From a virus, in the UHGV virus genome UHGV-0038496: a stretch of DNA of 64,000 nt; one strand, written 5' to 3'. Position 1 is the stretch's first letter; every line of letters begins with the position of its first letter. This document shows, one piece after another, positions 37,217 to 42,282 of the stretch. The notes beneath the pieces were generated by a model. That model was not told the origin of the DNA. It searched no databases and worked only from the letters and a program-made list of their open reading frames with translations. Both the position numbers and the translations under genes were made by a program.

Positions 37217-38002
37217 TTAAATCATCCTCTTATACATAGAGGGTGAAACAATCTTCGGAATAACACATGGCATCGCAACTTCCTCTTTTTCAAGGTAGTT
37301 GATTGCAGAAGCAATGGAGTCGGCCCAGTCATCTTTACGGCTAAAGGTTGACCGTTCGCCGTTGAATTTCTCCAGCTCTGTCAAAAATGCTTCCAGTGTA
37401 TCAGGGTCGAAACTTGACCTGACAAGCCGAACCATACCCTGTTGGGCAAGGTTGGCAAACGGTGAGAAACGGGTGAGTTTTGATTTGTTAGACGGCATTG
37501 GGTCTTCTTCCACCCTGAAACCTCCAGCAAGGAGTTTGCGGGATGAAGTAAGAAACTCACTCTTACCTGCCTGACCGGGGTCCACAGAGAAGACAATCAC
37601 ACAATCTTCACCATCAAACTCTGCCTGTTTCCTGATAATAACATCGCGTTCACCAGCTTTCTTGCAGAACTTACCGCTCAAGCCTGTGGAATACCTGCCA
37701 TCATCTACGTTTTCAGGACAATAGTCACCAGAGATGTAGTAGTAACCATCGCTATCCTTGCTGACTTTGATACTGGCTGTATAGTCGGGGAATTTGTTGC
37801 CAGAGGTACGTTCTGTACCAGCTTTATCCCACGCTCTTACAGAAACTGCTCCTAGGGGGACATGATCCGCATCTTTCAAGAATGTGCGACTGAAATAGTT
37901 TGCGCCTTCCGGTTTAGCGAACCAGTTACCATAGAGAAGTTGTGCTTTTTCCAGTTCTGGCAGACCTTCTAGGAATGCAAGATATTCTGGGTTATCACGC
38001 AA
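37217..38002 (-). CDS. Terminase large subunit, 3' exon (nuclease domain)
   Basis: 261 aa beginning LRDNPEYL; upstream frame closed by TGA a few codons earlier, so this is not a complete gene; intron core immediately upstream. Confidence 0.75.
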   Translation of the reverse strand: MRDNPEYLAFLEGLPELEKAQLLYGNWFAKPEGANYFSRTFLKDADHVPLGAVSVRAWDKAGTERTSGNKFPDYTASIKVSKDSDGYYYISGDYCPENVDDGRYSTGLSGKFCKKAGERDVIIRKQAEFDGEDCVIVFSVDPGQAGKSEFLTSSRKLLAGGFRVEEDPMPSNKSKLTRFSPFANLAQQGMVRLVRSSFDPDTLEAFLTELEKFNGERSTFSRKDDWADSIASAINYLEKEEVAMPCVIPKIVSPSMYKRMI

Positions 38003-39009
38003 GCAGATAGGGTTATCGTGTCCTGGTGTTCAGGGCCGGACGCAACTCCGACCCCCGTTGGTTCCATCCACCGCATCCATGCTCGGCTGCATGTTACCAT
38101 GCAGAGCAGACTATATCACGATCCTGTTTCTCACAGGACCCTTCGCTTTTCGAGCACCATCAGCTTGTGCCCTACTCCCTTTCGGGATAGTCGTTGAACT
38201 ACAATTACCAATCATAATTGTTTGAAATGTAAGTATAAGTTTTCCTTTCCTTGATACTTTTCACTGTACGGTGAGAAACCCCCCACAATCTTGCCACCGC
38301 ACCAACGGATAAGCCTTTTTGTAAATCTTCGCAGATACCAATCACCTTGTGCTCACTTATTCTGTTAGCTGAAGGTATTTCCCTAAAGTGAAACTCCGCA
38401 GAGATATCTGGGTATACTGATCCATTCTTTATACCACTTACAAGGGTTTGATTGACACCGAACATCTGACAGATATCTTTTACCCTTGCACCTTGCTCTA
38501 ATAGCCTGCATATTTCAAGGGCAGTGGCATCATCCAAATACCTGTATTTATTTACATAATCTTTTTTAAGTCCAGTTTCATGGGCGTGGTGTGTGTTTTC
38601 CTCTGGGGTTGTCCACTCAAGGTTCCATGCGGCGTTATTCAACTTATTACCGTCCAAGTGATTTACTTGGGTTTTCACGCTAGGATTATCATTATCAACA
38701 AAAACCTCAGCAACAACTCTGTGAACAAGCACTTGGAACTTTTTGCCGTCCTCACACAGGGAAACCACAGCATAGCCTGTCTTTTTATGCGTAACAGGTT
38801 GAAGGAATTTATTAGAATACAAACTATAAATTCTGCCATCATATGTCACGCAATAGTGTGGGTAACCTAAAAATCCTAAATTCTTCATTTCAAACACTCC
38901 CTACTACAGTTTCGGAAGAATAATTATAGCTGCTGATTATCTGAAAGTCAATCAGATTTTCCAGCAATTAACGAAGTTATTCGACGTGCATTACTGCACG
39001 AAGCCACTA
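38003..39009 (-). mobile_element. Group I intron C in terminase gene, carrying HNH ORF (approximate boundaries)
   Basis: 3' part (38003-38204) contains AACGACTATCC...GATATAGTCTGCTCTGCATGGTAACATGCAGCCGAGCATGGATGCGGTGGATGGAACCAACGGGGGT, about 50/51 nt identical to nrdD intron 2. Confidence 0.6.
38205..38897 (-). CDS. Intron-encoded HNH homing endonuclease (NUMOD-like N-terminus)
   Basis: 230 aa; QVLVHRVVAEVFV, VNHLDGNKLNNAAWNLEW HNH motif; C-terminal helix-turn-helix-like region. Confidence 0.8.
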   Translation of the reverse strand: MFEMKNLGFLGYPHYCVTYDGRIYSLYSNKFLQPVTHKKTGYAVVSLCEDGKKFQVLVHRVVAEVFVDNDNPSVKTQVNHLDGNKLNNAAWNLEWTTPEENTHHAHETGLKKDYVNKYRYLDDATALEICRLLEQGARVKDICQMFGVNQTLVSGIKNGSVYPDISAEFHFREIPSANRISEHKVIGICEDLQKGLSVGAVARLWGVSHRTVKSIKERKTYTYISNNYDW

Positions 39010-39327
39010 CAGATTAATGGTTGCACCAATAAAGGCGATAGAGAGGGGTTTTGGAACTATCTCAACACCTTTACCGTTAACATACGTGTACTTCTCGATC
39101 AACTCTTCTGGCGTATCGCCGAAGATAAATTCCCCATCCCTACGGATGAAATAACGCTTAACGCCACACTTACTTTCATCGGGGTAGCCTTCGTCATCAA
39201 GCCACCAACGAACAAGTTTGGCTAAATAATGTTCAGAATCGGGGTTACAGCTGATCACCATTCGCGAAGAGTATTTTGATTTCGACCTCATACGGGAAAT
39301 CAGGTAGTCGATTTGCTCCCATTCGAA
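39010..39327 (-). CDS. Terminase large subunit, internal exon (approximate boundaries)
   Basis: Frame FEWEQIDYLISRMRSKSKYSSRMVISCNPDSEHY...IVPKPLSIAFIGATI; ISCNP resembles ATPase motif III; ends just before a DNP-type motif that continues in the 3' exon. Confidence 0.55.
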
Positions 39328-39684
39328 CTGAGTCGTTTGTGTTCAGGCAAGGTCGCTAATCTTGCCCCGCCACCATGTGGCAGCTGCATGTCTCCATGCA
39401 GACCAGACTATATCTTATAAGCGGTAACAACCGCCTATCCTCCCGTTTCGGCAGTCTTAAAAGACTGTGGGTTTCCCCAGCCGCTTGGCCCTAACGCCCG
39501 TAAGCGATAGTCGTTGAGCACACATCCTATCAGGATGCTTCGCTGCGGATTATCTAAATCAACACACTATTACCATACCTTCGGTCTTTCTCCAAAGCCA
39601 ATATTATGTTACCATAATAGATTGGTGGTGTCAATAGTAAAGATTTCCCCGCAATTAGGGAGGTTTTACGAGAGCTACCAACTA
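39328..39684 (-). mobile_element. Group I intron B in terminase gene, ORF-less (approximate boundaries)
   Basis: Contains CAACGACTATCG...GATATAGTCTGGTCTGCATGGAGACATGCAGCTGCC...CCTGAACAC core elements (minus-strand sense). Confidence 0.5.
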
Positions 39685-39735
39685 ACCCTCGTCAAAGCAT
39701 ATTAAAGTATATTCCACTTTTGTCCCGCCGGATCG
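39685..39735 (-). CDS. Terminase large subunit mini-exon encoding Walker B motif (approximate boundaries)
   Basis: Minus-strand frame ...TKVEYTLICFDEG then TAG; LICFDE fits the hhhhDE Walker B consensus at the expected distance (about 100 aa) after the Walker A in the 5' exon. Confidence 0.5.
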
Positions 39736-39975
39736 CTACTCCGACGCGGTGTGCTAAGACACCCGCCACATATTACCATGTGGAACAGACTATCTCTTCC
39801 ATCCTTGGCGTGCCGTTTGGATCACCAATCGCTTGTGATTCTACTCCCCTACACTCATCGGGGATAGTCGTTACACTCGGTTTCAATTAATCCTTTAACC
39901 GTAGCTCGGTATTGTCCTTTTGTCAAGGAGTTTCACCGAATTAGGCACGAAGGGCAGGTTTGTTTACCCTTGATG
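39736..39975 (-). mobile_element. Group I intron A in terminase gene, ORF-less (approximate boundaries)
   Basis: Contains GTAACGACTATCCCC...GAGATAGTCTGTTCCACATGGTAATATGTGGCGGGTGTCTTAGCACACC core, paralogous to the tape measure intron. Confidence 0.45.
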
Positions 39976-41079
39976 ATTCAGCTTATCTTGGACGTATTCC
40001 ATGTGGCAGTACTTGATTACCGCACCATCCCTTTTCTTATTCCACTTACCTGTCTTTGCATCGTAATATGGAAAAGTAAACTTATGATCTTTCTCCCTAA
40101 ATTTTGGCCTCATATATTCAGGAAGATCCAGATACACACTTAGTGCTTTAGGCCACAGACCGCCTTCACCTTCCAGTTGTGGGGTTGTCCTACGGAACAT
40201 CACCACAGAGGTGTTTGGGTCATCTATCATCTTTAGTGGGAGAAGCTGCAAAAGAAAGGATTTACCACTGTTGCCTGTCACTGCAATGCAGTTTTCCAGT
40301 CTGGTGATAAAATAGCCTGTTGTGGTAGCAAAACAATATTTGTAACCATCTTCCGGCTCAAACTCTTCGAACGTTGCATCGTTATTAAGAGCAATCGTAC
40401 CTGCACGTTCGTTGGAGAACACAACTTTGTAACCCTTTTCGAAGAAGATCTGTGCATTGAATCCCAGAGATGATCCGAGGTATTGCAAGAAATCAGCCTG
40501 TTCTTTCGTTGGAACAACGTAGACATGCGAGTCATTACCGTTCAGGTAAATCTCATACCAGATCTGCAACAACTGGCGACGATCACAGTTATACCATTCA
40601 TCTGTGAATTTGTAATATCTTGCCTTTTCTTTCAGCTCTTCGTCAGAAATATCAAGGCCAGTACCACCCATGTTCACAAACGTGGTTTGCATACGCATTG
40701 CCAACTCATCGTTAGCATGTTGTTCGGCCACTTCACTGAAACAAAGTGTACCGTAATCTGTTCCGTCTTCTGGTACATACAGGACTGTGTGCTCGTCAGA
40801 CAATTCCTGACAAATACCATCCTGCACAACCCTGGTCAATTTATCGCATTCCAGCTTAACAAACTCTTCAGGCTGGATAAACATAGCCTTACCAGTTTCT
40901 TTATCAAACTGGAGGATATCTTGACCATCCCAGTCTGAGATTCTGATCCAACCGTTAGGTGTCATCACCTCATGTCGCATTGACAAACAACCCGCTGCCC
41001 CACCAATGATCAGGAAGTCGGCATCATTTTCCAGAATCATTTGTTGTTTACGGGAGCATGGGCCATACATTTTAGCCAT
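39964..41079 (-). CDS. Terminase large subunit, 5' exon (ATPase N-terminus with intein in P-loop)
   Basis: ORF as called (371 aa); extein sequence IIGGAAG / SGKSFLL reconstitutes Walker A GAAGSGKS once residues 31-270 are removed; the true 5' splice site lies somewhere before the in-frame stop at 39964. Confidence 0.75.
   Translation of the reverse strand: MAKMYGPCSRKQQMILENDADFLIIGGAAGCLSMRHEVMTPNGWIRISDWDGQDILQFDKETGKAMFIQPEEFVKLECDKLTRVVQDGICQELSDEHTVLYVPEDGTDYGTLCFSEVAEQHANDELAMRMQTTFVNMGGTGLDISDEELKEKARYYKFTDEWYNCDRRQLLQIWYEIYLNGNDSHVYVVPTKEQADFLQYLGSSLGFNAQIFFEKGYKVVFSNERAGTIALNNDATFEEFEPEDGYKYCFATTTGYFITRLENCIAVTGNSGKSFLLQLLPLKMIDDPNTSVVMFRRTTPQLEGEGGLWPKALSVYLDLPEYMRPKFREKDHKFTFPYYDAKTGKWNKKRDGAVIKYCHMEYVQDKLNHQG
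40270..40989 (-). mobile_element. Intein (mini-intein, about 240 aa) in terminase Walker A motif
   Basis: Begins CLSMRHEVMTPNGWIRISDW (intein block A pattern) and ends ...ENCIAVTGN followed by +1 Ser; flanking exteins form an intact P-loop. Confidence 0.7.
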
Positions 41080-41375
41080 TAATTCTCCTTATTGAATAAA
41101 GATTTTACATAATCCTGCAAGATGATTAATTTGGCACGATCATTGCTACAGGAGAGATTGTTCTGCCTCATAATTGCAGAGTTCTCCGCATCTGGTGCAC
41201 CTTTCACCAGAGGGATAGCTTTTGCTGGTGGGATCATAGCTGCCGCAGGAGCCTCTACAGCGAGTTGTTCAACTTTCTGCGGTGCAACTGTGACTGTCGT
41301 ATTTTTAGGTGAGCTACAACCTACCAAGGACATAGAAAACGTAAGTGCAATAGCTAATGCAAGTAACCACCTCAT
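41079..41375 (-). CDS. o-spanin-like outer-membrane lipoprotein
   Basis: 98 aa; signal peptide with lipobox SLVG-C; Pro/Ala-rich mature part; start overlaps the stop of the i-spanin-like gene by 4 nt. Confidence 0.55.
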   Translation of the reverse strand: MRWLLALAIALTFSMSLVGCSSPKNTTVTVAPQKVEQLAVEAPAAAMIPPAKAIPLVKGAPDAENSAIMRQNNLSCSNDRAKLIILQDYVKSLFNKEN

Positions 41376-41791
41376 TGCTGCACCTCCGAATTAATACTTT
41401 CGTTGTAGATATCGATCACTTTATCTGGGATCTGGCTCTGTTGCCCTTCAGGAGATGACTGGAACTGCTGTTGTGTAGCCCCACCAAAAGCTCCTGGAGA
41501 GTTCATGGCGTTCTGCATATTAGCCAGCTTCTGCTCAAGCTCCCTGACTTCATAAGCGTGTTCCAGCTTCGTCTGGTTTGCTTGCAGCTTCTGCTCCATC
41601 ATCAACTTATCCCATTTCTGCTCAGTTACAGCGACTCCTTCGTTGTAGGCATTCTGTATCTGGGTGTTGTACCAACTGTGCACTCCAGCGCAGGCTACAA
41701 CCAGTAAGACAGCCGCGATAGTCCATTTTATCACGCGCTTGTATTTTATCAGGAATGCAAGTACTGCTGGCACGAAACCTCCAGAATCCAT
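41372..41791 (-). CDS. i-spanin-like protein (N-terminal TM helix plus periplasmic coiled coil)
   Basis: 139 aa; TM segment WTIAAVLLVVACAGV; coiled-coil EQKWDKLMMEQKLQANQTKLEHAYEVRELEQKLANMQ. Confidence 0.5.
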   Translation of the reverse strand: MDSGGFVPAVLAFLIKYKRVIKWTIAAVLLVVACAGVHSWYNTQIQNAYNEGVAVTEQKWDKLMMEQKLQANQTKLEHAYEVRELEQKLANMQNAMNSPGAFGGATQQQFQSSPEGQQSQIPDKVIDIYNESINSEVQQ

Positions 41792-42206: not shown

Positions 42207-42282
42207 TGGCACCCCGTACAGGACTCGAACCTGTAACCTATGGCTTAGAAGGCCACTGTTCTTCCATTTGAACTAACGGGGC
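42207..42282 (-). tRNA. tRNA-Arg (anticodon UCU), CCA encoded
   Basis: 76-nt cloverleaf on minus strand: acceptor GCCCCGT/ACGGGGT, D stem GTTC/GAAC, anticodon stem GTGGC/GCCAT with loop CTTCTAA, T arm ACAGG-TTCGAGT-CCTGT, discriminator G, 3' CCA. Confidence 0.85.

Follow-up and report, generated by a model that had tools for sequence, protein, structure and literature searches.

Inteins cluster in the P-loops of ATPases that serve replication, repair, and packaging (Novikova et al. 2016, PMC4760082), and in actinobacteriophages inteins are found most often in the large terminase subunit, TerL (PMC5050341; bioRxiv 10.1101/2025.01.02.630785). The TerL1-a and TerL1-b inteins are sporadically distributed, many of them carry LAGLIDADG endonucleases, and their splicing has been shown; phage class 1 inteins also often have Gly, Lys, or Ser in place of the penultimate His (PMC5050341). 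RNA splicing of TerL has been demonstrated with complementary DNA for an HNH-containing intron in the related Certrevirus CB7, a phage whose NrdA gene also harbors an intron together with an intein (PMC7344957). Our literature search found no paper on an intein in the TerL of rV5-like phages. Here we analyze a stretch of 64,000 nucleotides, the UHGV virus genome UHGV-0038496 (hereafter the window, meaning this whole stretch), in which positions 40989..40270 of the minus strand very probably encode a cis-splicing intein between Gly30 and Ser31 of the mature TerL, inside its Walker A P-loop (GAAG/SGKS; here and below, a slash marks a junction). Terminase P-loop inteins are already well known, and the element described here is a further example with unusual catalytic residues.

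An in-frame insert in the terminase P-loop

The insert starts CLSMRHEVMTPNGWIRISDW and ends RLENCIAVTGN, after which the C-extein continues SGKSFLLQLLPLK (SGKSFLL). The features of this part of the gene are as follows.

39964..41079, minus strand: first TerL open reading frame (ORF), 371 aa, from a program-made ORF list
39966..41079, minus strand: TerL exon 1, 371 codons that cover the N-extein, the predicted intein, and the beginning of the C-extein as far as ...KLNHQG (ORF list; alignment to exon 1 of rV5, Av-05, and TH18; exon mapping)
40990..41079, minus strand: N-extein, 30 aa, MAKMYGPCSRKQQMILENDADFLIIGGAAG
40990..41001, minus strand: first half of the Walker A motif, G-A-A-G, the last four residues of the N-extein
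40270..40989, minus strand: predicted intein, 240 aa, ORF codons 31-270, with the Cys1 codon at 40987..40989 and the Asn240 codon at 40270..40272
40258..40269, minus strand: second half of the Walker A motif, Ser+1-Gly-Lys-Ser, with the Ser+1 codon AGT at 40267..40269

Deleting the 240 residues in silico fuses IIGGAAG to SGKSFLL and yields GAAGSGKS, which fits the Walker A pattern GxxxxGK[ST]. The initial annotation, made from the sequence alone, had described codons 31-270 as beginning with Cys, ending with Asn, and being followed by Ser, and had predicted a perfect Walker A motif upon their removal; its coordinates (40989..40270, minus strand) prove exact, and the motif is restored as it stated.

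The insert is in frame and has no counterpart in most orthologs. Exon 1 of phage rV5 reads IGGAAGSGKSFLL with no insert, and the DNA around its empty site is ...GGTGCAGCAGGG/TCTGGCAAGTCG.... When the exon-1 protein is used as a tblastn query, rV5 and at least 34 other rV5-like records align as two pieces over a 393-nucleotide span, equal to 131 aa, with nothing between IGGAAG and SGKSFLL. In six further records (Av-05, TH18, and relatives), a homologous insert, either 241 or 329 aa long, occurs at the identical codon. Metagenomic proteins add 328-aa forms in rV5-type terminases (P0005-P0007), a 152-aa mini form (P0010), and a 240-aa form that is 91% identical to the window copy (P0001) and stands for a cluster of 432 member sequences. 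The site thus exists in empty, full-length, truncated, and mini states, as would be expected if an intein moved through a homing cycle. Because the rV5 site lacks the insert and an independent profile matches the segment (see below), the split Walker A motif is not a matter of chance. Comparison with terminase homologs, proposed earlier as a way to expose a conserved nonsplicing domain, shows instead that the segment is missing from rV5 and most relatives and variable in length elsewhere.

Domain searches point in the same direction. The raw exon-1 ORF has no Pfam match, whereas the 514-aa protein processed in silico matches Terminase_6N over positions 1-211 of 215 (expectation value, E=9.3e-21) and also matches Terminase_6C. 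As the Terminase_6N match is regained only after RNA splicing and intein removal in silico, this result supports an intein.

We estimated the ratio of nonsynonymous to synonymous substitution rates (dN/dS) between the window and the metagenomic contig that carries P0001 (L004), at 89% nucleotide identity. The ratio is 0.097 for the intein (0.105, 0.074, and 0.084 for its N-terminal lobe, middle, and C-terminal lobe) and 0.081 for the C-extein. Nucleotide identity between the two is 89.0% in the intein and 88.8-90.0% in the exteins, and the G+C content of the intein, 43.3%, equals that of the host gene. Equal selection, identity, and composition inside and outside the element indicate long vertical coinheritance under constraint. 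A foreign base composition of the intein was considered and rejected on the same G+C figures.

Two observations concern the exchange of alleles among relatives. The Ser+1 codon is AGT in five of five intein-bearing alleles examined (the window compared with L001, L002, L004, L005, and L003) versus TCT in the empty rV5 site; this two-step difference could reflect co-conversion during homing or resistance of the empty site to cleavage. Between Av-05 (L001:3501-4631) and TH18 (L002:3501-4847), dS is ≈0.08-0.11 in the exteins and 0.045 in the C-terminal lobe of the intein, and the region of the endonuclease remnant shows saturated differences (dN 0.49). This mosaic, read from the sequences, suggests recombination between intein alleles rather than simple deletion or descent. 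Conceivably, the truncations in Av-05 and in the window are one shared deletion.

Intein family, fold, and endonuclease remnant

The relatives of the element came to light only with profiles. A single-sequence word-index search returned just two near-identical proteins, and a phmmer search of PDB sequences with one intein gave no more than a marginal match. By contrast, a profile of eight trimmed inteins searched against 1.84 billion proteins found 6848 cluster representatives at E<=1e-3, 804 of them at E<=1e-30. A profile rebuilt solely from 150 representatives (<=44% identical to the window copy) matched the window segment with E=1.3e-42, computed for a nominal database of 1e6 sequences; the same profile found no second copy of the family in the window.

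The family signature is strict. Among 162 full-length matches, the first residue is Cys in 160, block B:10 is His in all 162, and the position of window Cys219 is Cys in 161. Block G:5 is Thr in 150 and G:6 is Gly in 154; the last residue is Asn in 161, with a TGN ending in 142, and the position of window Arg230 is Arg in 161. B:7 is Ser, Thr, or Cys; B:12 is never Trp; and the +1 residue is Cys (78), Ser (71), or Thr (12). Nearly all copies sit at GxxG/[CST]GK[ST], in hosts that include RecD/UvrD-like, DnaB, primase-helicase, clamp-loader, terminase, PIF1, SNF2, RecA, and PhoH-like ATPases. The window copy keeps every junction residue that the family conserves: Cys1, Ser64-x-x-His67, Cys219, Thr238-Gly239-Asn240, and Ser+1. 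Cys1, the block B His67, the C-terminal Asn240, and Ser+1 are also the junction residues by which inteins in general are recognized; the penultimate His at G:6, common and nonobligatory in inteins, is Gly239 here. The initial annotation took the final Gly-Asn pair as a possible sign of "atypical or decaying splicing chemistry." Decay is not supported, Gly being a conserved hallmark present in 154 of the 162 members, and what has decayed is the homing endonuclease; atypical chemistry is still possible.

The reach of the family extends well beyond terminases. It occurs at the equivalent P-loop site of PhoH-like, AAA-type, and guanylate-kinase-like proteins (P0008, P0009, P0011), and tblastn matches in phages of Bacillus, Pseudomonas, Vibrio, Tenacibaculum, and Enterocloster (H107-H160) place it in RtcB, primase-helicase, RecD-like, and PhoH genes. 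Two members look degenerate: P0109 lacks Cys1, and P0158, also without Cys1, carries Phe at F:4 and terminates in SGD/G.

Standard domain libraries do not see this family. Pfam yields only a weak LAGLIDADG_3 match (E=0.068) for the full-length TH18 intein, and the list of 25 Pfam families for 56 family members includes no intein model, the window, Av-05, and TH18 copies being unrecognized as well. Empty or weak Pfam results are therefore uninformative for this family. PHROGs gave matches only to families (PhoH-like, TerL) that themselves include intein-bearing members.

An AlphaFold model of the intein, built on 11 sequences, has a predicted local distance difference test score (pLDDT) of 90.7 and a predicted TM-score (pTM) of 0.87, and shows a HINT fold with one LAGLIDADG half-domain. 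Every strong Foldseek match in the PDB is an intein or a HINT domain. The predicted parts of the intein are as follows.

40675..40989, minus strand: N-terminal splicing lobe, intein residues 1 to ≈105, with block A Cys1 and block B Ser64-x-x-His67-x-Val69
40798..40800, 40789..40791, and 40783..40785, minus strand: block B codons of Ser64, His67, and Val69, respectively, aligned to S65..H68..M70 of the AceL NrdHF intein
40375..40674, minus strand: degenerate LAGLIDADG homing-endonuclease remnant, intein residues ≈106-205
40270..40374, minus strand: C-terminal splicing lobe, intein residues ≈206-240, with block F Tyr218-Cys219-Phe220 and block G Thr238-Gly239-Asn240
40333..40335, minus strand: codon of Cys219 (block F:4)

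The C-terminal lobe also contains Gly225, which occupies the usual position of His F:13, and Arg230. Full-length relatives have two LAGLIDADG-type motifs (LQVAVMADG and ILDEIFHWDGS), and Pfam LAGLIDADG_3 matches 11 of the 56 family members. The window copy has lost the whole first LAGLIDADG half, for which the independent profile skips positions 122-183. Its second motif has lost Trp-Asp-Gly, reading QLLQIWYEIYL-NGND versus QLEIILDEIFHWDGS in full-length relatives, and the remaining stretch is modeled as a single half-domain inserted at the usual place. With neither the two motifs nor the catalytic acidic residues of a mobile full-length LAGLIDADG intein, the endonuclease part is, judged from its sequence, dead, so this copy can no longer home. 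Nor is it a mini-intein, which would consist of the splicing domain only (≈130-160 aa), as the 152-aa P0010 does; the element had been called small for an intein, an impression that its 240 aa and folded remnant of ≈100 aa do not bear out. The presence of Ser+1, together with Cys, Ser, or Thr at +1 in 161 of the 162 members, sets it apart from bacterial intein-like (BIL) domains.

Splicing chemistry and alternative readings

Empty orthologous sites, the HINT fold, conserved catalytic positions, purifying selection, and the restored Pfam match agree with the placement of an intein in the terminase P-loop by the initial annotation, and the intein is almost certainly functional, as far as its sequence can tell. 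We envisage that a message freed of three group I introns would be translated into a 754-aa precursor. The precursor would excise a 27-kDa intein and join its exteins into a 514-aa TerL (about 59 kDa) with an intact P-loop and the junction peptide ...IIGGAAGSGKSFLLQLLPLK; without protein splicing, the phage would package no DNA. The chemistry would most likely be of class 1 type, with a Cys1 thioester at the N-junction and the acyl group ending on Ser+1, which is the predicted C-extein nucleophile; cyclization of Asn240 and an O-to-N shift would then form the peptide bond. In place of the usual His G:6 and His F:13, other residues would assist Asn cyclization, as in other penultimate-Gly inteins, and Cys219 would probably be essential as a helper, relay, or redox partner of Cys1. 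The window copy itself would have been inherited vertically and would represent a single stage of a homing cycle, the remaining stages (empty, full-length, mini-intein) being found in related phages.

Precedents for the penultimate Gly come from two systems. The Bethlehem gp51 intein of a mycobacteriophage has this residue and splices completely, and its G316H variant is slower (PMC5050341); the AceL NrdHF intein ends T144-G145-N146/S, and its G145H variant is dead (PMC7891396). A penultimate Gly is therefore compatible with efficient splicing. The AceL NrdHF intein is also the closest solved relative of the window intein, both by sequence (E=4.1e-8) and by fold. Profile alignments place Cys219 at block F:4, opposite the mutated Cys124 of AceL NrdHF and the Asp of class 1 TFIIB inteins; the family YCF aligns with H-[C124A]-L of the former and YDL of the latter. 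F:4 is usually Asp in class 1 inteins, and in class 3 inteins it is Cys, the nucleophile with which splicing starts (PMC2807308, PMC4031507). A category of "class 1 inteins with Cys at F:4" is known (PMC3196547).

The element thus combines traits of both classes. Cys at F:4, Thr at G:5, Ser+1, the P-loop site, and the phage host give it a class 3-like look. Class 3 inteins as defined by Tori et al. 2010 have no N-terminal nucleophile, whereas residue 1 here is the Cys typical of class 1, conserved in 160 of 162 members. The class 3 WCT triplet (Trp B:12, Cys F:4, Thr G:5) is represented by Val69, Cys219, and Thr238, two residues of the three. WCT inteins that retain Ser1 or Cys1 are reportedly the subject of a 2011 article by Tori and Perler in J Bacteriol. 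That such a diverse family conserves Cys1 speaks for its use, and our best reading of the sequence is class 1-type initiation at Cys1, with Cys219 essential in an undefined role.

The alternative that survives best keeps the same intein and makes Cys219 an obligate covalent nucleophile, either through class 3 attack on the N-junction despite Cys1 or through a relay from Cys1 to Cys219 to Ser+1. The near-invariance of Cys1 speaks against it, class 3 inteins having a non-nucleophile at position 1, as does the lack of Trp at B:12 anywhere in the family; moreover, Cys occupies +1 in about half of the members, a rarity among class 3 inteins (PMC5222942). We consider this chemistry possible but unlikely. 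The elements with Cys1, Cys F:4, Thr G:5, and Gly G:6 form a very large, so far uncharacterized P-loop intein family. Under a related and slightly more tentative proposal, which we doubt, a covalent Cys219 would make this family a living "progenitor state" from which class 3 can arise by loss of Cys1, and class 3 chemistry would have evolved more than once, outside the monophyletic WCT clade. The intein literature that we examined holds no trace of a Cys1/Cys-F:4/TGN family.

Conditional splicing, in which a Cys1-Cys219 disulfide would keep the precursor inactive until reduced, is compatible with a splicing intein at this site and would make terminase activation dependent on redox state. The two near-invariant cysteines occupy positions that face the N-junction in solved inteins (PMC7891396, PMC7664689), and redox control via catalytic cysteines is reported for other inteins (PMC6195587). 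The E. coli cytoplasm, however, is reducing, and we judge such control improbable.

Several points weigh against a functional class 1-type intein. Both His residues for Asn cyclization are missing (Gly239 at G:6 and Gly225 at F:13), and Thr68 stands at block B:11, where AceL NrdHF has a compensating Arg. The closest characterized relative is class 3, not class 1, so the choice of first nucleophile is indirect (PMC7891396). Pfam finds nothing in the 240-aa segment or the raw exon-1 ORF even at E<=1, that is, no Pfam intein model recognizes the segment; the dN/dS estimate comes from a single sequence pair; and the exact junctions of intron 3 are only approximate.

Could the element be a decaying, splicing-defective relic, and this terminase allele a pseudogene or helper-dependent? 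Its endonuclease domain is clearly degenerate, the penultimate and F:13 His residues are missing, and the gene is loaded with three introns as well. Yet the family-invariant junction residues are all intact, dN/dS is ≈0.1 across the splicing lobes and equal to that of the exteins, and TerL is essential and single-copy in these phages. The 91%-identical allele stands for its cluster of 432 sequences, the isolated phages Av-05 and TH18 propagate with homologous inteins, and the genuinely degenerate copies look different, with Cys1 lost or with Cys F:4 replaced by Phe and Asn by Asp (P0109, P0158). A relic is thus very improbable. Least credible of all is a lineage-specific, nonexcised accessory terminase domain, favored only by the annotation of the whole Av-05/TH18 ORF as "terminase large subunit," since the segment splits P-loop residues that must be contiguous for ATP binding, is missing from most orthologs, varies among 0, 152, 240, 241, and 328-329 aa in relatives, recurs at the same P-loop position in unrelated ATPases, and has a HINT fold.

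The interrupted terminase gene and its place among known systems

The same gene had also been said to need RNA splicing, and this claim is upheld by an Rfam match of 80.3 bits, by exon mapping, and by the annotation and paper on rV5 (PMC3606486). The match, to the group I intron model RF00028, spans 39384..39720 (gathering score 50, E=7.8e-20). A weaker match to this model spans 39766..40028 (44.7 bits, E=3.6e-9, under the gathering score), and weak group I signals lie at 38666..39026 and 38087..38395. Junctions were placed by the rule that the 5' exon ends in U and the intron in G, with exons mapped onto relatives that lack one or another intron. The predicted arrangement downstream of exon 1 is as follows.

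39717..39965, minus strand: group I intron 1 (site 1, after ...HQG), with its 5' splice site after the T of an in-frame TAA (Rfam, junction rule, homolog comparison)
39685..39716, minus strand: mini-exon 2, 32 nucleotides, which supplies the rest of the Leu codon that intron 1 divides, and encodes (L)EYTLICFDEG (Walker B)
39334..39684, minus strand: group I intron 2 (site 2, after ...CFDEG) (Rfam, junctions)
39016..39333, minus strand, 3' boundary approximate: TerL exon 3 (TQFEWEQIDYLISRMRSKSKYSSRMVISCNPD...FIGATI) (tblastn to the intron-free segment of L005)
≈38018..39015, minus strand, boundaries approximate: intron 3, with an HNH homing-endonuclease ORF at 38205..38897 inside
≈37217..38017, minus strand: TerL exon 4, nuclease domain (Terminase_6C)

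The ligated exon junctions are predicted to read CAAGGGT/TGGAATAT and GAGGGT/ACTCAGTTC, and the joined message is in frame and encodes the 754-aa precursor. For intron 3, the U-before, G-at-end rule does not fix the exact junctions, and one residue between ...GATI and DNPI... is unaccounted for. The HNH ORF has Pfam HNH_3 and two helix-turn-helix domains, and its location inside intron 3 is likewise annotated in rV5 and TH18. Intron occupancy varies among relatives: rV5 has introns at sites 2 and 3 (PMC3606486), TH18 at 1 and 3, and the closest metagenomic relatives, L004 and L005, at site 2 only. Site 1 is accordingly occupied in TH18 but lacks an intron in rV5, L004, and L005, whereas all three sites are occupied in the window.

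The best nucleotide matches, to rV5-like Vequintavirus genomes, have ≈78-79% identity and extend over no more than 14-19% of a 23-kb stretch, and the window phage is absent from the INPHARED collection. It is an rV5-like phage (Vequintavirinae), probably of a separate genus-level lineage, to judge by these matches. Directly upstream of TerL lie two small overlapping ORFs (41079..41375 and 41372..41791, minus strand), whose positions match the Rz-like spanin pair of rV5; in the one nearer to TerL, the N-terminus (...MSLVGCSS) is of lipoprotein type and the stop directly adjoins the start codon of TerL. A tRNA gene at 42210..42282, minus strand (Rfam, 68.3 bits), lies upstream of the lysis/terminase block, where rV5 has a tRNA cluster.

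To make its packaging ATPase, the phage would depend on four self-splicing events in one gene, three by group I introns and one by an intein. All stages of the homing cycle of the intein can be seen among related phages, which offer a compact natural system for the buildup of selfish elements in an essential gene. The Av-05 and TH18-type inserts are deposited in GenBank merely as "terminase large subunit" with the intein unannotated, and, as no Pfam model flags the intein, annotation pipelines will keep missing such copies; the first terminase ORFs of the window, Av-05, and TH18-type phages should read TerL precursor exon 1 containing an intein. If the chemistry is plain class 1, the element is an ordinary, correctly recognized intein. 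With its catalytic signature (Cys1 plus Cys F:4, TGN, and an absence of assisting His) and its tie to AceL NrdHF, the family is a case in which ideas on the origin and polyphyly of class 3 splicing can be tested cheaply, and it could also supply new splicing tools.

Among known systems, the nearest in host and site are the TerL inteins of the Vequintavirinae phages Av-05 (KM190144), TH18, 18-1-2, 19-1-2, and 24-2-1, which share the insertion codon and the Cys1...VTGN/S ends and are 46-54% identical to the window copy in amino acid sequence. The Av-05 intein is a truncated 241-aa form that resembles the window copy, unlike the TH18-type inteins, which are full length at 329 aa with two LAGLIDADG motifs; the window allele and P0001 form a branch separate from all of these. 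The TerL1-a and TerL1-b inteins of mycobacteriophages (Kelley et al. 2016, PMC5050341) likewise occupy the Walker A P-loop of the ATPase domain of the large terminase. They differ from the window intein in belonging to the Terminase_1 family and to another host group, and they use the classic site between Lys and Thr/Ser of GK[ST], whereas the window site lies two residues upstream (GxxG/SGKS); no sequence relationship between the two emerged here, where no search was aimed at one. The survey of Novikova et al. 2016 covered P-loop inteins of bacterial and archaeal genomes (PMC4760082); the window family, by comparison, keeps one fixed P-loop position in many ATPases.

Mechanistically, the only characterized relative of the family is the class 3 split intein AceL NrdHF (PDB 6ZGQ; Hoffmann et al. 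2020, PMC7891396), which also ends TGN/S. That intein is proven class 3, although its triplet is the atypical MCT and it lacks the assisting His residues (PMC7891396), whereas the window mechanism is read from sequence. AceL NrdHF starts with Ala1 instead of Cys1 and has Arg69 at B:11, where the window has Thr68. It is a natural split intein whose halves flank a free-standing GIY-YIG gene, and it sits in NrdHF, a ribonucleotide reductase, and not in a P-loop; the window intein is contiguous and carries a LAGLIDADG remnant. Canonical class 3 (WCT) inteins, such as MP-Be DnaB and the Msm and Mch DnaB-1 inteins (PMC2807308, PMC7664689), have Cys F:4 and Thr G:5 in common with the window intein, along with Ser or Thr at +1, an association with phages, and a preference for ATPase P-loops.

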